From: Candidatus Nomurabacteria bacterium
GTDB taxonomy: Bacteria > Patescibacteriota > Minisyncoccia > Phycocordibacterales > UBA1006
NCBI GenBank assembly: GCA_943357975.1
Contig: CALRGS010000001.1
Coordinates: 1 to 59,136, forward strand
Direction: 5' to 3'
DNA length: 59,136 nucleotides
The position numbers and the translations under genes were made by a program. The notes beneath the pieces were generated by a model. That model searched no databases, had not been told where the DNA came from, and was given only the letters and a program-made list of their open reading frames with translations. Positions 941 through 47,445 of this stretch are shown one piece after another. Every line of letters begins with the position of its first letter. The stretch's first letter is position 1.

Positions 941-2631
941 TAGTTAATCAAGAATTTCGCAAAATCAACGAATGGGAGCAACAGGGTGTCCGATGAAAAC
1001 TTCGCACCATTTTTGGGATGATAGTTATAGAGAAAAACAATAAACTTTGGATTTTGTGCTGGAAAATACGCCATGAACGTATGCAGATTTCTGTCATCGT
1101 AATACCCACCGTTCTCATGATCCGCAATCTGCGCGGTTCCTGTTTTTGCAGCAATTGAATAGTGCTCCAGTTTTATTTTCCCATCATTATAATTATCAAA
1201 CACCGTGGTCAGCATTTTTGTAATCGTTACAGCCGTTTCAGGTTTAATGAGCTGTCCTGTCACCGGCCATTCCATTTTTTTATGAATACCACTTGGATAA
1301 TCAATTTCGGAAACAAGGTGTGGTGTCACCAAACGACCACCATTGGCAAGGACTGCCTGCGCACGAAGCATTTCAATCGGTGAAACAGCAACCCCTTGTC
1401 CAAATGATACGTTGGCAAATTCTACATCACGATTCGTACCAAGGTTTGAAATGAGCCCCTTGGTCTCTGCCGGCAAATCAATACCTGTTCGTTCACCAAA
1501 TCCAAAAGATTCCCACTGTTTGCGAAAAGCCTCTTTTTGCATGCGCTGCATCACATGCACCATTCCTGTGTTCAATGATTGATTTAATACGCTCTGCATA
1601 GTCACATTATTTCCACGACCTTTTTTATCGAAGTTATAAATAGTCCTGTTCCCCACTTTTACAAACCCTGCGTCGTTATAGGTTGTTGTTGGTGTCACCA
1701 TGCCCTGATCCAGAGCAATAGCCATAATCACCGGTTTCATAATAGAACCCATTTCAAAATCACTTTCGATCAGTGGGTTATTAAATTGAGATACGTTGGT
1801 CACACTTCGTGTTTGATTTAAATCAAATCCATTATCAAGCCCCATGGCAATGATCGCCCCTGTTTTCGGATCCATGACAATACCTCCGGTTCGATCAGAG
1901 TTCCACTTTTCCTTAACGGCATCAAGCATCTGTTCAAGGCTTTTTTGAACAGATGGTTCGATAGTGGTAACTACGTCACCTTCAATTTCATCAGCATCCC
2001 CTACTAATTTACTAATATCAGTAAAAATTTCAGCAAAGAAGTTTACATACAATTTTTGGTCTGTACGCGCAAGTACTTTGTTATAGGAGTGTTCAATCCC
2101 ATAGCGTCCAGAAAAATCATCCCCTTTGAACCCCATGAATCCGATTGCGTGTGCGGCTAAATCCCCGGCAGGATAAAAACGCCAGTTCATACGATAAGCA
2201 GTCACTCCGGGTAGTTTCATTGCTGTAATTTGTGAAGCTGCAGATTCGGGAACATTTACTGCAATTTCCACATACGGGTCTTTTTTCTTGGTTACTTGAG
2301 TAATGAATGTGTCATGGTCAAGTCCAAGAATTTTTCCAATTTTTGTATAGGCAGCTTCTGGGTCACCTAAGGTAATCGTGCTTACTGCGATTTTAAATCC
2401 TGACTTAACCGTTGCTGCAGAAACCTGATTACCATCCTTGCTAGTAAAATAAATACTTCCTCGATCAAAGAGGTTTGAACTATTTGTTACATACTGTCGG
2501 TCAGCTAGCATTTCATACTGTCGCCCATGAATAATTTGTAAATAAAAAAGCTTAGCGATAAAAATCACTACGGCAAAAACAACCAGCCCACTTACCAAAT
2601 ACAGTCGTTTTTGAGAAAAATTCGAATCCAT
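916..2631 (-). CDS. ftsI: penicillin-binding protein 2 / FtsI-type peptidoglycan D,D-transpeptidase
   Basis: 571 aa with an N-terminal TM helix. Has SxxK (GSIMKP), SxN (SLNTG) and KTG (KTGTA) motifs and sits in dcw-cluster context. Confidence 0.85.
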   Translation of the reverse strand: MDSNFSQKRLYLVSGLVVFAVVIFIAKLFYLQIIHGRQYEMLADRQYVTNSSNLFDRGSIYFTSKDGNQVSAATVKSGFKIAVSTITLGDPEAAYTKIGKILGLDHDTFITQVTKKKDPYVEIAVNVPESAASQITAMKLPGVTAYRMNWRFYPAGDLAAHAIGFMGFKGDDFSGRYGIEHSYNKVLARTDQKLYVNFFAEIFTDISKLVGDADEIEGDVVTTIEPSVQKSLEQMLDAVKEKWNSDRTGGIVMDPKTGAIIAMGLDNGFDLNQTRSVTNVSQFNNPLIESDFEMGSIMKPVIMAIALDQGMVTPTTTYNDAGFVKVGNRTIYNFDKKGRGNNVTMQSVLNQSLNTGMVHVMQRMQKEAFRKQWESFGFGERTGIDLPAETKGLISNLGTNRDVEFANVSFGQGVAVSPIEMLRAQAVLANGGRLVTPHLVSEIDYPSGIHKKMEWPVTGQLIKPETAVTITKMLTTVFDNYNDGKIKLEHYSIAAKTGTAQIADHENGGYYDDRNLHTFMAYFPAQNPKFIVFLYNYHPKNGAKFSSDTLLLPFVDFAKFLINYYDVPPDR

Positions 2632-2709: not shown

Positions 2710-3807
2710 TCACTTTTTCTTCTTAGCTAAACTCTCCCTTAAATTTAATCGGCATTTCTCATAACTCTCCATAAAATTTATGGTCTCTGTGTTGCTTACC
2801 TCTTTCGCCCTGCGGGTAAAAATTTGAGCCATAGTATGATTCTCGGTCATCATCTTTCTGATAAATCTAAGCGAGGAAAATTTCTTTCCCCCTTTAATTT
2901 CTTCAGCAAGCGAATCACGAAAATCTTTATGGCTTACCCACATAATTTTATTATGAATTGCAAGGCTTGAATGTACAAACATTACCCCTTGTGGCGCAAT
3001 AGCATAGTCCTGAATATCATAGGGACTGAAAGGAAACAGTGAGTACATTTGGTCAATGGACGCCTTCAGAGTATCCGGCAGCTTCTTGGCGGTAATCATT
3101 CGATTATTAAGAGATATGGTTCTCTTCTTCTTTGTTCCCTTAAGGTGACTATTGTAGTAACGACCATCTGGCTGGTCTTTTACCAAAGCCATATGTTTAA
3201 CGTTCTTGGTAAATTCTTCTACCAAACCTTTCACAAGAGCAGTATCAGCTGCAAATACTTGAGGAAGGGTCTCATCATACAATTCCGACTTAATAAGGTT
3301 CGAACGAAGAGTTACTTGTATTTCACGATATTGTGATTTAAAGTGCCACGCAGCTATTGCCTGATTAATCTGACGAATCAAATTAATCTCGGTTTCTGAA
3401 ACAACTGGCGAGGTTGGCACAATAGAATACCCAATGACTTTTGGAGTCATCTTGTACTGAGCAAGAAAATTCTGAATATCGTCTGCAAATTTTTGAGTAT
3501 TCCCTTCCAATCTTATTGATTTGTTCGTAGTAAACCTTGTCATCTTTATTATTTCAGGATGATTAAGAACAGGTATAAGGTTAAAAGTGGAAGAGAGATG
3601 TAAATCATAGCGATCGCTCGCATTTTTGAGCGCACTTTCCAAAATAGAAAATGTTTGCTGTACTTCCGGATCAACAACTGTTGCGGTAACCGGAGTGCCT
3701 TTATTAGCAAGCGGACAAGGCGGACAGCCCTGGTCACAGCTTTTGGATGCAGCGAATATTTCTATACTAATCTCGTCAAAAGCGGGTCTGGATTTTTTCT
3801 TTGCCAT
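2710..3807 (-). CDS. hypothetical protein with an N-terminal CX3CX2C motif (SCDQGCPPC); inserted in the dcw cluster
   Basis: 365-aa ORF with its own TTGACA-17-TAATGT promoter (3845..3873) and its own terminator. No confident family match from reading. Confidence 0.65.
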   Translation of the reverse strand: MAKKKSRPAFDEISIEIFAASKSCDQGCPPCPLANKGTPVTATVVDPEVQQTFSILESALKNASDRYDLHLSSTFNLIPVLNHPEIIKMTRFTTNKSIRLEGNTQKFADDIQNFLAQYKMTPKVIGYSIVPTSPVVSETEINLIRQINQAIAAWHFKSQYREIQVTLRSNLIKSELYDETLPQVFAADTALVKGLVEEFTKNVKHMALVKDQPDGRYYNSHLKGTKKKRTISLNNRMITAKKLPDTLKASIDQMYSLFPFSPYDIQDYAIAPQGVMFVHSSLAIHNKIMWVSHKDFRDSLAEEIKGGKKFSSLRFIRKMMTENHTMAQIFTRRAKEVSNTETINFMESYEKCRLNLRESLAKKKK

Positions 3808-11317: not shown

Positions 11318-13201
11318 TTATTTTGCCTCACTTTCTCCTTCTTCTGTCGCATCGGCTGCCGGTTCTGCTTCAGGAGCTGCTTGTGCAGCTTTTTCTTGTT
11401 CAGCCTTCTGAATCACTTCATAAATTTTCATCATTTCTGTAGAAAGTTTTTCATTCGCATCATGAATCGCTGCTGCATCCTCTTTATCCTTCACCTCCTT
11501 GAGTGCAGCAATCGCACCATCAATAGAAGCCTTGGTAGCCTCATCAAGCTTGTCACCATATTCCTTCAATGATTTCTCTGCCGCGAACAAACTTGTTTCT
11601 GCGGTATTTTTCTTGTCTACCAATTCTTTTTTCTTCTCATCTTCTTCTTTATATTTTTCAGCATCTTCATGCATTTTTTTAATATCAGCATCAGAAAGTC
11701 CTCCTCCTGATTGCACGGTAATAGAAGCCTCTTTGTTACTTGCCTTGTCCATAGCCTTCACATTCAAGATTCCGTTCGCATTAATATCAAACGTCACTTC
11801 AATTTGTGGCATGCCTCGTGGGGCTGGCGCAATATCCCCGAGCACGAATTTTCCAAGAGACTTGTTATCACTCGCCATGGGTCGTTCACCTTGAACAATA
11901 TGAATTTCTACTGATGTCTGATTATCAGCGGCTGTAGAAAATACTTGCGATTTAGAGGTTGGGATAGTTGTATTTCGTTCAATTAATTTTGTAGCCACAG
12001 ATCCCATAGTTTCAATACCAAGTGACAATGGAATAACATCAAGGAGGAGTACATCCTTCACGTCTCCCTGTAATACTCCGGCCTGCACCGCAGCACCTAA
12101 TGCTACTACTTCGTCTGGATTAATCGTTCGGTTAGGTTCTTTACCAAATAACTTTTTCACTTCCTCAAGGATCTTCGGCATACGAGTCTGTCCTCCTACC
12201 ATGATCACTTCATCGATTTCACCAATCTTAAATGGTGATGCCGCAATGGCTCGCTTAGTGATTTCAATAGACTTATCAATAAACGGCGCAGCCAATTCCT
12301 CAAGTTTCGCTCGAGTCATTTTCATTACCAAGTGTGCAGGAACTCCATCGTTCTGTGCGATAAATGGAATATTAATTTCACTTTCAACGGCCGTAGACAA
12401 TTCATGCTTTGCTTTTTCTGCAGCTTCTTTCAATCGTTGTAACGCAAGGACGTCTTTGGTTACATCAATTCCAGATTCTTTTTTAAATTCTGCAGCAATC
12501 CACGCAATAATTTCTCGATCAATGTCTTCTCCTCCCATGTGCGCATCTCCGTCGGTAGATTTTACTTCTACAAGGTCCGCACCTACTTCAAGTACTGAAA
12601 TATCAAATGTTCCTCCTCCGAAGTCATACACAGCAATCTTCTGCTCTTTTTTAGAATTAAATCCGTAAGCCAAGGCGGCAGCGGTTGGTTCGTTAATAAT
12701 TCGCATAACATTCAGTCCTGCAATTTTACCTGCATTTACGGTTGCCTGTCGCTGAGAGTCATCAAAATATGCGGGTACGGTAATCACAGCCTCGGTAATT
12801 TTCTCACCAAGCTTTGCTTCTACGTCTGCCTTGATTTTAGAAAGGATCATCGCAGAAATTTCTTCGGGACGATATTCTTTATCTCCAAGTTTTACTGATA
12901 CTCCAGCATCTCCACCACTTGAAATTTTAAAGGGTGAATGCGCCAAGTCTTTTTTTACTACCTCGTCGGTAAACTTGTGACCCATGTAACGCTTGATTCC
13001 GAAAATAGTATTTTCTGGATTGGTTACTGCTTGGCGTTTCGCCAAAGCTCCCACCATGCGGTCGCCATTTTTTGCAAGTGCAACAATACTAGGTGTCGTT
13101 CGTGCACCTTCTACGTTTTCAATGATTTTTGGCTGTCCTCCTTCGATGATTGAGACAGCGCTGTTTGTTGTTCCTAAGTCGATTCCAATGATTTTTGACA
13201 T
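11318..13201 (-). CDS. dnaK: molecular chaperone DnaK (Hsp70)
   Basis: 627 aa with [17 protein letters not shown] and other Hsp70 signatures. Confidence 0.97.
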
Positions 13202-13216
13202 GTGATTTGTTTAAAA

Positions 13217-13465
13217 TTAATTATTATTTTTTAATTCTTTCTTCCCCTCCTCTATCCCCTTCTCATACCCCTTTTTATACCCCGTCCGTTTTGCAGTTTC
13301 CCCAATGGCATAAACAAAGATCACCATCGCAGTAATTTTAATCCCAAGTAAGTTTCCCCAAATTATCAAGAGTACTATTGCAATGACCACCAGACCAAAA
13401 ATAGTCTTTGGCCCCATCTCTGTAAGGCTCCACATTTGTTTTTCGAGATTTTTCATATATTTCAA
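13217..13465 (-). CDS. small membrane protein (2 TM) heading the dnaK transcription unit
   Basis: 82-aa ORF, 15 nt upstream of dnaK and downstream of a consensus promoter. Confidence 0.55.
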   Translation of the reverse strand: MKYMKNLEKQMWSLTEMGPKTIFGLVVIAIVLLIIWGNLLGIKITAMVIFVYAIGETAKRTGYKKGYEKGIEEGKKELKNNN

Positions 13466-13533
13466 GCCTGCTTCGGTTAAGCTATGCAGGATACGACAAG
13501 CTTTCCGCGACCGCGAAATACTTGTACAAAGCT

Positions 13534-13561
13534 ATTATATTCTTTGTTTTAAAGGTGTCAA
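13534..13561 (-). promoter_or_regulatory. predicted promoter of the 13465-dnaK unit
   Basis: Minus strand: TTGACA(13556-13561)-16-TATAAT(13534-13539). Confidence 0.6.
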
Positions 13562-13573
13562 CCCCATACTAAT

Positions 13574-13601
13574 TTGACACCAAACTCGAATCTGTTATGA
13601 T
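13574..13601 (+). promoter_or_regulatory. predicted promoter of small RNA copy 1
   Basis: TTGACA(13574-13579)-16-TGtTATGAT(13596-13601). It sits back to back with the dnaK-unit -35. Confidence 0.6.
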
Positions 13602-13607
13602 GACACC

Positions 13608-13699
13608 ATGCCTGTGGGGCGAGAAATCTCTTTCCCTGGCTCGGCTAACCAAGCTGAAGACAGGCATTATTAAAAAATCATCCTTCGGGATGATTTTTT
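13608..13699 (+). ncRNA. candidate structured small RNA, copy 1 (three-way junction plus intrinsic terminator); class unknown
   Basis: P1 AUGCCUGU(13608-13615)/ACAGGCAU(13660-13667), hairpin a 13616-13636, hairpin b UCGGCU-AACCA-AGCUGA 13641-13657, terminator ATCATCC-TTCG-GGATGAT-U5 at 13677-13699. There is no plus-strand CDS downstream. Homologous to 46566..46645. Confidence 0.55.
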
Positions 13700-14070
13700 A
13701 ATGGTATCAAATCTCGTTTTCCTGTTATCCAGCCTGGAATAATTGATAAGAACGTATAGGATCCATCTCCTAATTTCATAACAACTACTTTATATTTTCT
13801 TTCTTGAACTATTGCAATAAAACAAAAGAATTCTTTTTCTGTGTTTTCATACTCTTGAAGCGTCCCTGATTTTTGAATAATTTCTGAAACAAAATCAAGG
13901 GCTTCAAATCGTTGTTTAATAATCTTCTTACTCCTCATACCTTTTTCCAATTTCCAAATAAGATGTTTAAATCCTCGAGACCTAAAAGACACTTCCTGTT
14001 CAAGGTATGGACAAAAGACTGATTCAAGTTTTTTGTACTTCTCTCGAAGAGGCTCAATAAATCCATGCAT
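13678..14070 (-). CDS. orphan protein family X, copy 1 (130 aa), convergent with small RNA copy 1
   Basis: Paralog of 46644..47012, sharing CP.L..E..F...GF.HLI.K...RF..L..V..I...KVV..KL. The stop codon lies inside the shared terminator hairpin. Confidence 0.7.
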   Translation of the reverse strand: MHGFIEPLREKYKKLESVFCPYLEQEVSFRSRGFKHLIWKLEKGMRSKKIIKQRFEALDFVSEIIQKSGTLQEYENTEKEFFCFIAIVQERKYKVVVMKLGDGSYTFLSIIPGWITGKRDLIPLKNHPEG

Positions 14071-14148
14071 CTTTATATCCTACCAAACCGGGATAAAATC
14101 CATATCAATTTTTTCTCAAGAAATTCTCAAGAAATCTCTATCTCAACC

Positions 14149-14171
14149 AAAGAAGCCCCATGGGCTTCTTT
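14149..14171 (-). terminator. intrinsic terminator after the ABC transporter gene
   Basis: AAAGAAGCCC-cat-GGGCTTCTTT hairpin. Confidence 0.6.
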
Positions 14172-14172
14172 G

Positions 14173-15915
14173 CTATACTCGCTCCCCAATCTGTTGTCTC
14201 CACATCGCCTGATACAACCCATTTTGTTCAAGGAGTTCTGCATGAGTCCCAGTCTCGACAAGTTTTCCTTTTTCCAAAACAAAGATTCTATCTGCGTGCA
14301 TAATTGTTGAGAGCCGGTGCGCGATCAATACCGTAATCCGCAAAGCGCCTTGTGACACATCTCGAATTGTTTTCGTAATTTCTTCTTCAGTAATTGAATC
14401 AAGTGCCGACGTTGCCTCATCAAAAATCAAAATACTTGGTTTTCGTAAGAGTGCGCGCGCAATCGAAAGTCGCTGTTTTTCACCACCAGAAACTTTTACC
14501 CCTCCTTCCCCAATCACCGTATCTAGTCCTTGCTCTCCACGTTCAAGCAGATTCTGACACTGCGCATTATTGAGTGCCCCTAAACATTCAGCATCCGTCG
14601 CAGCAGGATTCACGAACAACATGTTTTCTCGAATCGTACCTGCAAACAATTGTGTGTCCTGGGTTACAAATCCAATTTGATTCCTCAATTCTTCCTTGTT
14701 AATTTCATCATAACGAATACCGTTATACAAAATCGCTCCACTGGTAGGCGTATACAACCCCACTAATAATTTTACGAGTGACGTTTTTCCAGAACCAGAA
14801 GGTCCCACAAAAGCAATGGTTTGCCCCTGTTGAACGCTATACGAAATATGTGAAAGCGCCTGAGTCGTCGCTGTTCCATATCCAAACGAAACATCATCAA
14901 ATGAAAAATTCTTAAGTTCCCCCATCGCTTTCGGGTGTTCAGGGTTTGCCTCCGGAGGTGTATTCATAAGTTTCTCATAGTTTGCAAGCGAAGCCTCGGT
15001 CTCACGATACGCAGCAATAAACGGCGCAATTTGTTGTAATGGAAAGAATAACCAGAAACTATAAATATTAAGCGAGAAATATTGCCCCAGCGTAATCGTT
15101 TTCGTATAGATCAAGTAGAACAAGAAAAATACCAACCCTGCGCGAATTGCGTTTGTAATCGTACCTTGGACAAAATCAAGACTGCGCAAATAACGAAGCT
15201 TTTTAAGTTCAAGTTTCAAAATTTTATCAGTCGTATTATTCAAATGCGCAACCTCTTGTCCTGCAAGTCCGAGCGCTTTTACCAATTCAATATTGCGAAG
15301 CGATTCTGTTGTAGAGCCTGCAAGTGCTGTGGTTTCAGCAACAATCGTTTTTTGAATGGACTTGATACGTTTTGACATCAGAATACTCACGGTAGCAATC
15401 ACAGCGATCATGCCAAAAAATACAACCGGGATCAGCCAATAAATAGTTGCCGAGTACACCGCAACGAATACGAAGATAATAGATGAAAAGAAAATAGTAT
15501 TCACCATTTGCAGCATCAAGTTTTCAGTATCCTGGCGCGCTTTTTGGAGCTTGCCCAGCGTTTCACCAGAGCGCTCGTCTTCAAACACGCTGTACGGAAG
15601 CGCAAGTGAATGATTTACTCCTTCACGATACATATCTGCACCGGATCGTTTACTCACCGTGTTCAAATAATAATCCTGGAAATTTTTTGCTACGCGCGAA
15701 ACAAGTGCCGTACCAATAAACGCAAGGACCAGTAATCCTACTCCACCCAAAAATGCTGACTGGGTAAAATCAGCAAAATGCATTGCATACTTATCAATCA
15801 ACCGTTGCGTAATATACGGTTCAAGGAGTGAGAAGAACTGGTTGATAAGTGCTAATACTAATATAAGCCCACACATCATCCAATATTTTTTGATATAAAA
15901 CAGAAAGATTTTCAT
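14173..15915 (-). CDS. ABC transporter, fused permease/ATP-binding protein (MsbA/exporter type)
   Basis: 580 aa with a 6-TM domain followed by Walker A GPSGSGKT, signature VSGGEKQR and Walker B ILIFDEA. Confidence 0.9.
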   Translation of the reverse strand: MKIFLFYIKKYWMMCGLILVLALINQFFSLLEPYITQRLIDKYAMHFADFTQSAFLGGVGLLVLAFIGTALVSRVAKNFQDYYLNTVSKRSGADMYREGVNHSLALPYSVFEDERSGETLGKLQKARQDTENLMLQMVNTIFFSSIIFVFVAVYSATIYWLIPVVFFGMIAVIATVSILMSKRIKSIQKTIVAETTALAGSTTESLRNIELVKALGLAGQEVAHLNNTTDKILKLELKKLRYLRSLDFVQGTITNAIRAGLVFFLFYLIYTKTITLGQYFSLNIYSFWLFFPLQQIAPFIAAYRETEASLANYEKLMNTPPEANPEHPKAMGELKNFSFDDVSFGYGTATTQALSHISYSVQQGQTIAFVGPSGSGKTSLVKLLVGLYTPTSGAILYNGIRYDEINKEELRNQIGFVTQDTQLFAGTIRENMLFVNPAATDAECLGALNNAQCQNLLERGEQGLDTVIGEGGVKVSGGEKQRLSIARALLRKPSILIFDEATSALDSITEEEITKTIRDVSQGALRITVLIAHRLSTIMHADRIFVLEKGKLVETGTHAELLEQNGLYQAMWRQQIGERV

Positions 15916-46531: not shown

Positions 46532-46559
46532 TTGCATCCTGTTCTGTTTTGTATATACT
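46532..46559 (+). promoter_or_regulatory. predicted promoter of small RNA copy 2
   Basis: TTGCAT(46532-46537)-16-TATACT(46554-46559), then 6 nt to the AUG-initial transcript. The spacing is the same as in copy 1. Confidence 0.45.
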
Positions 46560-46565
46560 GATCTC

Positions 46566-46645
46566 ATGCTTGCGAGGATAAAACCTCTATCGGCATTGTA
46601 GCTGATGGCAAGCATACTAATGGATCCCTCTCGGAGGGATTTTTT
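46566..46645 (+). ncRNA. candidate structured small RNA, copy 2 (three-way junction plus intrinsic terminator)
   Basis: P1 AUGCUUGC(46566-46573)/GCAAGCAU(46608-46615), hairpin a GAGG-AUAAAA-CCUC 46574-46587, hairpin b AUCGGC-AUUGUA-GCUGAU 46589-46606, terminator GGATCCCTC-TCG-GAGGGAT-T5 at 46622-46645. Confidence 0.55.
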
Positions 46646-47012
46646 AGTAACTCATTCTATCCATTACACTAAAGAAATGCTTCTCTGTATTATTTAATTT
46701 TCTTATGACTACTTTTATTATTCTATTATCTTGCAGCTTACTGAGCTCCCAAAAAACTGCCGTGTCGCCTTGGCATACAAAAATTTCAACGTTTTCATCT
46801 TTCAAAATATCTATTACCTCTCGAAGTAAATGAAATCTTCTTATTTGATCTTGTATAGGTCTTGGAATACGTCCTTTTCTTATTAGATGATTAAACCCTG
46901 CTTTAGTAAAAAATATTTTCTCATTATTTAAAACTGGACACGATATTGATCCAATGCTTGAATACAATATTTTAGTCTCTTGTTTTAATCTTTTATAGTA
47001 TTCCAATTGCAT
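46644..47012 (-). CDS. orphan protein family X, copy 2 (122 aa), convergent with small RNA copy 2
   Basis: ORF 46644..47162 trimmed to MQLEYYKRLK.. for three reasons: it aligns with the start of copy 1, the upstream terminator 47098..47134 lies inside the long ORF, and the promoter region is homologous. Confidence 0.65.
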   Translation of the reverse strand: MQLEYYKRLKQETKILYSSIGSISCPVLNNEKIFFTKAGFNHLIRKGRIPRPIQDQIRRFHLLREVIDILKDENVEIFVCQGDTAVFWELSKLQDNRIIKVVIRKLNNTEKHFFSVMDRMSY

Positions 47013-47097
47013 AATAACCAAGCCTAGCAAACCAGGATAAATTCTAGATAAATTATTTCTCAAGTTTTGATAAGGTCTCCTTTTAGATTCCTTGCAA

Positions 47098-47142: not shown

Positions 47143-47445
47143 TCAGAAAAAGATACCTCCAATGTTTATTGCGGACAGGACAATCCATAGGTATAGTAAA
47201 CCAATACGATACCATACAAATGAATTATAGGGACTACTATCTTTCACGAGTCGAGGAGCTTCAATGAGCATTATCACAGCAATAACACATGAGGCATAAA
47301 GAAACTGAACAAGATTTTGTGAATAGAGTACCTCTATAGGTATTCCGCTATATCCACTGTATTCGATAAACTTGTAGCACAGCGTGAAAATTATCGTACA
47401 ACTTGGTGCGATAACATAAATAAAAATCATTATGAATGTACCCAT
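47143..47445 (-). CDS. hypothetical membrane protein (100 aa, 3 TM)
   Basis: ORF, divergent from dnaE. Confidence 0.55.
   Translation of the reverse strand: MGTFIMIFIYVIAPSCTIIFTLCYKFIEYSGYSGIPIEVLYSQNLVQFLYASCVIAVIMLIEAPRLVKDSSPYNSFVWYRIGLLYLWIVLSAINIGGIFF

Follow-up and report, generated by a model that had tools for sequence, protein, structure and literature searches.

The question raised by this locus is what a small structured RNA gene is doing tail to tail with the gene of a small basic protein, and why the pair should be present twice in one stretch of DNA. The stretch covers positions 1–59,136 of contig CALRGS010000001.1 (assembly GCA_943357975.1) of a Candidatus Nomurabacteria bacterium, a member of the Patescibacteria, and is referred to below as the window. 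We found the pair to be a two-gene cassette of about 0.55–0.7 kb that is widespread in Patescibacteria. The structured RNA gene and the LPD3-like protein gene are jointly inherited and have been moved jointly. Rfam has no entry for this class of RNA, and by sequence the protein appears to be a distant, free-standing relative of the LPD3 domain. Literature searches found no description of this RNA–protein pairing.

An earlier note on this DNA, made from the sequence without database searches, had described a repeated unit, possibly a small selfish module, in which an RNA is coupled to a paralogous protein gene. Both parts of that description were borne out: the first by the two copies in the window together with a 670 bp cassette that recurs at 98% identity in differing flanks, and the second by the relationship of the two window proteins (30% identical, E = 9e-7) and by RNA–protein linkage across homologous loci. 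The two-copy observation on which the note relied held up, and is now far better supported by 40 distinct RNA sequences.

Two copies of the cassette in the window

Each copy consists of an RNA gene on the plus strand and a protein gene on the minus strand, with a terminator between them:

13574 to 13601, plus strand: promoter of RNA copy 1, TTGACA (13574–13579), 16 nt, TGtTATGAT; 11 of 12 consensus matches, with TG extension
13608 to 13667, plus strand: core of RNA copy 1, a three-way junction with an 8 bp closing stem, hairpin a (13616–13637) and hairpin b (13641–13657)
13672 to 13699, both strands: bidirectional intrinsic terminator of copy 1, AAAAAA-TCATCC-TTCG-GGATGA-TTTTTT, common to the RNA and the convergent mRNA
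13678 to 14070, minus strand: 130-amino-acid (aa) basic protein (isoelectric point, pI, 9.3) consisting of a free-standing LPD3-like domain; its fold is predicted to be of the Barnase/EndoU/Colicin/RelE (BECR) RNase type
14071 to 14135, minus strand: promoter and 5' untranslated region (UTR) of the copy 1 protein gene; duplicated −35 TTGAGA (14119..14114 and 14130..14125), 18 nt, weak −10 TATCCC (14095..14090), Shine–Dalgarno AGGA (14081..14078)
46532 to 46559, plus strand: promoter of RNA copy 2, TTGCAT (46532), 16 nt, TATACT (46554–46559); 8 of 12 consensus matches
46566 to 46615, plus strand: core of RNA copy 2, a three-way junction with hairpin a GAGG-AUAAAA-CCUC
46624 to 46645, both strands: terminator of copy 2, ATCCCTC-TCG-GAGGGAT followed by a T-run; overlaps the stop codon of the convergent gene
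46644 to 47012, minus strand: 122 aa paralogous protein (pI 9.6); family hidden Markov model E = 2e-36
47013 to 47063, minus strand: promoter of the copy 2 protein gene found by promoter scan, TTGAGA (47063..), 18 nt, TATCCT (..47034), and 5' UTR

The RNA of copy 1 starts at AUG 13608, 6 nt beyond the end of its −10 box. Its closing stem is AUGCCUGU/ACAGGCAU and its hairpin b is UCGGCU-AACCA-AGCUGA. The open reading frame (ORF) of 130 aa at 13678..14070(−) stops within the terminator hairpin, the descending arm of which encodes the last codons (..KNHPEG*). On re-reading the sequence, we recovered every detail that the earlier note had given for copy 1, namely the promoter, AUG 13608, the stems, hairpin b, the terminator, the end of the ORF and the tandem repeat. 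The minimum-free-energy fold of 13608–13702 is the three-way junction followed by the terminator (−41.4 kcal/mol, z = −6.7), and none of 200 shuffled sequences equalled it.

Copy 2 folds to the same design (−36.2 kcal/mol, z = −6.3) and has an identical 6 nt distance between −10 box and AUG. The closing stems of the two copies differ at two positions, and both differences are compensatory. The reading frames that open at the AUG run for 21 codons in one copy and 11 in the other, as had been stated before, and it is structure, not peptide, that is under selection. Each window copy is nearer to modules of other organisms than to the other window copy, 33 kb away; the closest relatives of the copy 2 RNA, for instance, are those of two metagenomic loci, L109 and L087.

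DNA upstream of the two protein genes had been reported to align, and this conservation is real. It corresponds to a weak promoter (TTGAGA-18-TATCCT/C, with a good −35 and a weak −10 element) and a short 5' UTR with a Shine–Dalgarno sequence. In copy 1 the region carries a tandem TCTCAAGAAAT x2 at 14114–14135, and we infer from its sequence that the promoter is active. In copy 2 the 5' UTR contains a small hairpin, CCTGG-TTTG-CTAGG, across the Shine–Dalgarno region. The database entry for the copy 2 protein (P0027) gives it 172 aa, with a TTG start at 47162. This entry is probably over-extended: the family alignment and the position of the promoter at 47063..47034 point to a true start at ATG 47012, giving a protein of 122 aa.

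A perfect promoter, TTGACA-16-TATAAT, is also present on the minus strand at 13534–13561, back-to-back with the promoter of RNA copy 1. It faces an 82 aa membrane ORF, 13217..13465(−), and dnaK, 11318..13201(−).

Conservation of the RNA and its linkage to the protein

A covariance model built from 14 RNA sequences identified only two sites in the window, copy 1 at 54.1 bits and copy 2 at 45.7 bits; the opposite strand at the same sites scored 12.9 and 14.6 bits. The general design of the family is a near-consensus sigma-70 promoter, a conserved 5'-RUG whose purine (A or G) is the first base of the RNA, a three-way junction of about 50–70 nt (typically ~55 nt) and a bidirectional terminator. 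The promoters are remarkably uniform: among 57 distinct loci, the distance from the end of the −10 box to the RNA start is exactly 6 nt in 49, and the promoter matches the consensus at nine or more of 12 positions in 47, several being perfect. The terminator layout of A-run, hairpin and T-run recurs in homologous loci. With an A-run ahead of the hairpin and a T-run behind it, these terminators should act in both directions.

Covariation, which had been suggested as a check of the two-copy comparison, was assessed on an alignment of the 40 distinct sequences, and the structure was upheld. Standard pairs occupy 92.7% of the pair cells, vs 24–49% when the partners are slid. Double-sided, compensatory changes occur at 12 of the 18 base pairs, and the observed values were not reached in any of 500 shuffles. 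Pairs 1–3 of the closing stem (A-U, U-A and G-C) are almost invariant, whereas pairs 4–6 and 8 covary freely. The conserved elements of the junction are the closing stem, RUGCYUG/CARGCAY, and the base of hairpin b, UCGGC/GCUGA. G-U pairs are common (27 of 40 sequences at one position and 22 of 40 at another) and, together with the difference of roughly 40 bits between the strands, they fix the transcribed strand. For the same reasons, we rejected the alternative that the structure belongs to the opposite strand, as a 3' UTR of the protein mRNA.

The earlier note had been unable to place the RNA in a known family, and we reached the same result with Rfam 15, in which nothing in the whole window matched at gathering score. 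A permissive scan of 13500–14200 returned only sub-threshold matches driven by the terminator (RNAI, 23.5 against a threshold of 47; STnc370, 30.5 against 54). ARAGORN found no tRNA or transfer-messenger RNA (tmRNA) gene in the window, and the RNA, with its three helices, has neither a T arm nor an anticodon loop. Two further identities were considered and set aside. For a hammerhead, twister or other small ribozyme, the CUGANGA-like string of copy 1 is not kept in homologues, and there was no Rfam match. For a riboswitch-controlled antisense transcript, the closing stem and terminator have no alternative pairing, and the RNA is also found without an opposite gene.

Several individual loci extend the picture of the RNA. 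Beside a protein of 23% identity in locus L120, a diverged RNA at 2965–3024(−) was recognized by eye from its promoter, junction and terminator, and scored only 8.9 bits, which indicates that the RNA family is wider than the present model. Locus L008 carries two complete RNA genes of different subtypes in tandem after one protein gene (2213–2273 and 2355–2413, minus strand), each with its own promoter and terminator. The flanks of the RNAs in L087 (1–1000) and L045 look G+C-rich by eye, compared with a G+C content of 40% in the window. Patescibacteria may therefore not be the only hosts of the RNA or, to judge from L087, of the protein.

Linkage was assessed from both sides. Homologous loci were first gathered around proteins of the closer set, from which the divergent copy 2 protein was left out, in genomes of Parcubacteria, Paceibacteria and Saccharibacteria. 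Wherever the end of the contig did not truncate such a locus, a similarly built RNA follows the stop codon directly on the opposite strand, with its own promoter and terminator, and the covariance model recovers all of these RNAs. The model also detects the RNA beside more distant proteins, from 36% down to 25% identity (L014–L020, L111–L118 and L121). Taken together, the RNA adjoins the protein stop in all assessable loci anchored on a family-clade protein, from 61% to ~23% identity (L001–L020, L111–L118, L120 and L121; about 20 distinct modules).

A metagenome scan keyed on the RNA pattern, not on the protein, yielded 63 loci with model scores of 35 bits or more. The protein gene is convergent, 35–65 nt away, in 46 of them and divergent in two (L087 and L109, both with RNAs of the copy 2 type); nine have no member of the protein family in the locus and six are cut by a contig end, leaving 57 assessable. 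No remnants of a decayed protein gene were found by tblastn next to the nine lone RNAs (best E = 0.09). The neighbours of these RNAs are unrelated to each other, being a MazF-like protein, a Bro-N protein, DUF302 or nothing. Two of the lone RNAs lie close to toxin-like genes of other kinds, perhaps by coincidence: in L077 a PemK/MazF-family gene (Pfam E = 1.9e-11) is convergent with the lone RNA 13101–13155(−), 141 nt off, and in L057 the lone RNA 952–1001(−) lies near a nucleotidyltransferase-like ORF that follows a small helical ORF, both assigned by eye.

The co-occurrence that the earlier note expected of RNA and protein therefore stands in one direction only. A family-clade protein was never found without the RNA, but nine of the 57 assessable RNAs (about 16%) have no protein. 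The dependence is one-sided: the protein needs the RNA to be present, and the RNA may stand alone.

The protein family and movement of the cassette

The protein had been regarded as an orphan that could not be placed, and this view has to be abandoned. When a profile was run against 1.84 billion cluster representatives, 1,240 matched at E ≤0.001 and 669 at E ≤1e-10, nearly all of 115–180 aa, so that the family comprises at least 1,240 clusters at 50% identity. Its members are typically basic proteins of 120–160 aa. In Pfam, the window protein matches LPD3 (PF18798) alone, at 18.4 bits and E = 0.0026, which is under the 27-bit gathering cut-off. LPD3 was matched at E ≤0.01 by 12 of 22 close members and by 18 of 56 diverse members (best E = 3.8e-8), and some relatives carry a precomputed PF18798 match. 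From these sequence comparisons, the family is most likely a sister clade of LPD3, related to it by remote homology. LPD3 was defined as a domain of polyvalent effector proteins from phages and conjugative elements (PMC5512222). Searches of IMG/VR viral contigs, GenBank phages and PLSDB plasmids returned no relatives.

AlphaFold models were confident, with a predicted local distance difference test (pLDDT) score of 86.7 with 21 sequences and 92.6 with 56 sequences, and have the predicted topology a1-b1-b2-a2-a3-b3-b4-b5-b6-a4. In a Foldseek search of the Protein Data Bank (PDB), the top match of both models was 6cp9_A/C, from the CdiA-CT/CdiI Kp342 complex, with a probability of 0.98–0.99. In a viral structure library the best neighbours were LPD3-bearing polyvalent proteins. 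There is a weak PBECR4 match in one family member, and weak matches to PDC-M04B, the model for gene B of the PADLOC candidate defence system PDC-M04, occur in eight of 56 members (best E = 1.4e-4).

H36 and R46 do not vary among the 56 diverse members, at least 90% of which also retain Y12, P21, F29, G33, F107 and S109; in the closer protein set, K94 does not vary either. Judged from the alignment, the kept residues H36, R46, Y12, S109 and K94 appear comparable in kind to the site of the CdiA-CT toxin class, which combines Lys-Tyr-Thr with a His and an Arg (PMC9086364).

Movement of the cassette can be read from four loci. The 670 bp stretch of 98% identity occurs in differing flanks in L017 (2807–3475), L018, L019 and L020. 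It begins ~90 nt ahead of the protein gene, takes in the protein promoter, the protein gene and the RNA gene, and ends shortly after the −10 box of the RNA promoter. No terminal repeats were seen at its edges. Its neighbours are a type I restriction-modification S subunit, an insertion sequence (IS) integrase or a DNA glycosylase. More generally, the neighbours of some modules are of kinds often met in variable or defence regions: NYN nucleases, S subunits of type I restriction-modification systems, an IS integrase, or a DNA methyltransferase together with SLFN/AlbA_2. In L111 the module lies between two genes of NYN-domain proteins, predicted nucleases (1856–2353 and 3167–3685), which are 76% identical to each other, and an NYN gene is also present near the module in L017 and L018.

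Possible functions and comparison with known systems

The earlier note had named three candidate roles, an addiction pair with an RNA antitoxin, a dedicated RNA–protein complex and a small selfish module, without ranking them. The evidence favours an RNA antidote over antisense control of the protein gene, though it does not prove it. Our tentative proposal, which we hold with less than even confidence, is that the RNA is an antitoxin or pseudo-substrate that restrains an RNase toxin, in the manner of type III toxin–antitoxin (TA) systems but with a different anatomy. According to this proposal, the protein would be a metal-independent, colicin-D-like RNase of the BECR superfamily, as the structure models suggest. 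The abundant RNA would bind it directly through the junction, using the closing stem RUGCYUG/CARGCAY and the UCGGC/GCUGA element, and in bound form would serve as inhibitor or pseudo-substrate, that is, as a protein-binding RNA antitoxin. Were synthesis of the RNA to cease or the RNA to be degraded, for instance when the cassette is lost or under stress or phage attack, the freed RNase would attack the RNA of the cell. Lone copies of the RNA could then be harmless leftovers, or could provide immunity against related RNases.

Several observations are consistent with this proposal, among them the covariation of the RNA, the predicted fold, the LPD3 matches, the kept residues and the basic character of the protein described above, and the points against antisense control given below, which favour direct binding. 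A protein that is never found without the RNA, beside an RNA that is sometimes found alone, is the pattern that a toxin and an antidote would be expected to show. The combination of a strong RNA promoter and a weak protein promoter would give the ratio expected of such a pair. The presence of two divergent copies in 59 kb, with a cassette that recurs elsewhere, would be typical of addiction or defence cassettes.

Other points weigh against the antidote proposal, to which the departures from type III anatomy described below have to be added. Both window copies are situated among housekeeping genes, with no defence island. Tight linkage is equally expected of any dedicated RNA–protein complex. 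One outlying relative of 25% identity with a clear LPD3 match, in L119 (2501–2989), has no RNA; the L119 locus is prophage-like, with a holin, an integrase and a zeta toxin. No function was assigned to LPD3 in its defining paper (PMC5512222). The fold match to 6cp9 is weak (Foldseek E = 0.007–0.019, TM score 0.43–0.51), and a sequence-level search of the PDB returned noise only, which makes the likeness a fold-level lead and not a membership. The matched chain, moreover, was taken to be the toxin, a colicin-D-like BECR tRNase, from its secondary-structure content alone: the toxin consists of five helices followed by four strands, and the CdiI immunity protein is nearly all beta-strand (PMC9086364, a review).

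A serious rival, which we consider somewhat unlikely, is a dedicated but non-toxic partnership with a role specific to Patescibacteria, in which the protein is a chaperone, processing or modifying enzyme of the RNA, or the RNA is a cofactor or scaffold of the protein. The linkage is tight despite the divergence of the proteins, the protein is basic, the conserved junction nucleotides suggest a specific protein contact, both window copies are found amid housekeeping genes, and synteny with L001 suggests vertical inheritance within a lineage; all of this fits a non-toxic complex. Two divergent paralogues in 59 kb and a cassette in differing flanks, however, fit a selfish or defence module better. 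The partnership also sits poorly with the roughly 16% of RNAs that have no protein, with toxins as the nearest relatives by fold, and with the occurrence of LPD3 elsewhere in effectors of phages and conjugative elements (PMC5512222). That the RNA is instead an independent regulatory or housekeeping small RNA, with the protein gene brought beside it by hitch-hiking or by an insertion hot spot at the RNA gene or its terminator, is improbable. The nine of 57 assessable RNAs without a family protein or gene remnants in the locus, the varied neighbours of these lone RNAs and the extra RNA gene in L008 would all agree with it. This explanation is weakened by the fact that cognate RNA and protein travel together: a hot spot would leave unexplained why subtypes of the two move jointly across flanks, and why the RNA lies within tens of bases of the protein gene in every assessable family-clade locus, in two arrangements. 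Nor would a housekeeping RNA be expected as two divergent copies 33 kb apart.

Antisense control in the manner of type I systems would have convergent transcription, through complementary 3' ends or terminator read-through, silence or degrade the protein mRNA. Convergence in 46 of the 48 linked cases, the position of the stop codon inside or beside the shared terminator and the contrast between a strong RNA promoter and a weak protein promoter are what such control would predict. We nevertheless consider it very unlikely. The earlier note had concluded that RNA and mRNA must overlap at their 3' ends; an overlap is present in the window, but it amounts to the shared terminator hairpin, about 20–35 nt that are self-paired in both transcripts, and it is dispensable, given that the divergent L087 and L109 lack it. 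The conserved, covarying junction lies outside the overlap and would be left unexplained. Pairing of the RNA with the 5' UTR of its own mRNA is no better than with non-cognate ones (−21.2 vs −20.0 +/- 6.9 kcal/mol), and a 130 aa globular basic protein does not resemble the short hydrophobic peptides of type I toxins. The proposal that the RNA is a leaderless mRNA for a very short peptide has almost no credibility, even though an AUG or GUG occupies the first base in 39 of the 40 distinct sequences. Coding is excluded by frame-shifting single-base insertions and deletions between near-identical RNAs and by the predicted peptides, which are unrelated and range from 10 to more than 20 residues. 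The AUG is in addition locked in the 8 bp helix, where its partner, CAU or CAC, changes along with it.

A more specific version of the antidote proposal can be imagined, in which a BECR-fold tRNase would, for the first time, have an immunity factor made of RNA, one that mimics a tRNA acceptor stem. The closing helix and next bases, 5'-AUGCYUGUGG...CARGCAU-3' (in copy 1, 13608–13617 and 13661–13667), resemble the acceptor stem and U8 of tRNA-Ile(GAU), which in E. coli was verified as AGGCUUGUAG...CAGGCCU-ACCA. The acceptor stem of tRNA-Ile(GAU) is the site cleaved by CdiA-CT Kp342 (PMC9086364). The RNA would then fill the active site as an uncleavable decoy, and free-standing RNAs could give protection when phages or conjugative elements inject related LPD3 effectors. 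This likeness was noticed post hoc and, allowing for roughly 40 tRNA species, is about a 1-in-20 coincidence. The 60 fetched loci contained 11 tRNA genes and one tmRNA gene, and no tRNA-Ile with which to make the comparison in Patescibacteria. We regard the mimicry as a long shot.

Patescibacteria comprise a large share of bacterial diversity and have tiny genomes, and almost no small RNAs have been characterized in them. The class described here brings solid covariation, a precise transcription unit, a protein partner and several copies per genome. If the pair does consist of an RNA antidote and an RNase toxin, RNA-based neutralization of a protein would extend past ToxN to the BECR/LPD3 superfamily, LPD3 would gain its first functional handle, and an RNA of ~55 nt would be a specific inhibitor of an RNase. 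If the pair is non-toxic, it would still represent a new dedicated RNA–protein complex in a poorly understood phylum.

Compared with known systems, the cassette shares features with several and coincides with none. In the LPD3 polyvalent proteins, the domain is one module of a giant injected effector, whereas here it is a free-standing chromosomal protein of Patescibacteria beside a small RNA gene; no RNA partner for LPD3 is given in the defining paper (PMC5512222). The models of the protein appear to share with CdiA-CT Kp342 (6CP9) an arrangement in which helices come before an antiparallel sheet of four strands, and the conserved residues (His, Arg, Lys, Tyr and Ser/Thr) are of comparable kinds. 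Toxins of the CdiA-CT type, in contrast, are delivered between cells and neutralized by a protein immunity factor, where we propose an RNA, and no sequence similarity to them is detectable.

Convergent gene pairs that meet at a terminator are familiar from type I systems. In the txpA/RatA and bsrG/SR4 pairs of Bacillus subtilis, the 3' ends of the two transcripts meet at the terminator and the RNA has a strong promoter of its own. Toxins of the txpA/RatA type are hydrophobic peptides of <60 aa, and the overlaps take in about 75–120 nt of the mRNA. The Patescibacteria cassette shares the convergent layout and the strong RNA promoter of these pairs, but differs from them in its dispensable, terminator-only overlap and its 130 aa globular basic protein.

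The likeness to type III TA systems (ToxIN, CptIN and TenpIN) is closer. In both, a structured and abundant RNA is encoded beside a small endoribonuclease, in our case a predicted one; the RNA is thought to bind the protein and not to pair in antisense; the unit is portable and present in several copies; and the RNA is tolerated without the toxin but not the reverse. The anatomy is different. Type III antitoxins are tandem arrays of repeats of about 36 nt that are cut to units by the toxin, whereas the window copies and homologous loci have a single unit; the pair in L008 consists of two complete RNA genes with their own promoters, and is not a repeat array. The type III RNA is encoded on the strand of the toxin gene and upstream of it, and a terminator separates the two, whereas 46 of the 48 linked cassettes are convergent and two are divergent. 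Type III toxins have a ToxN/Kid-like fold, whereas the protein described here is LPD3/BECR-like, with a weak match to LPD3 as its only Pfam assignment. Although it lacks the repeat array, the same-strand layout and the ToxN-type toxin, and does not fit type I either, the module appears to work most like a type III TA system.

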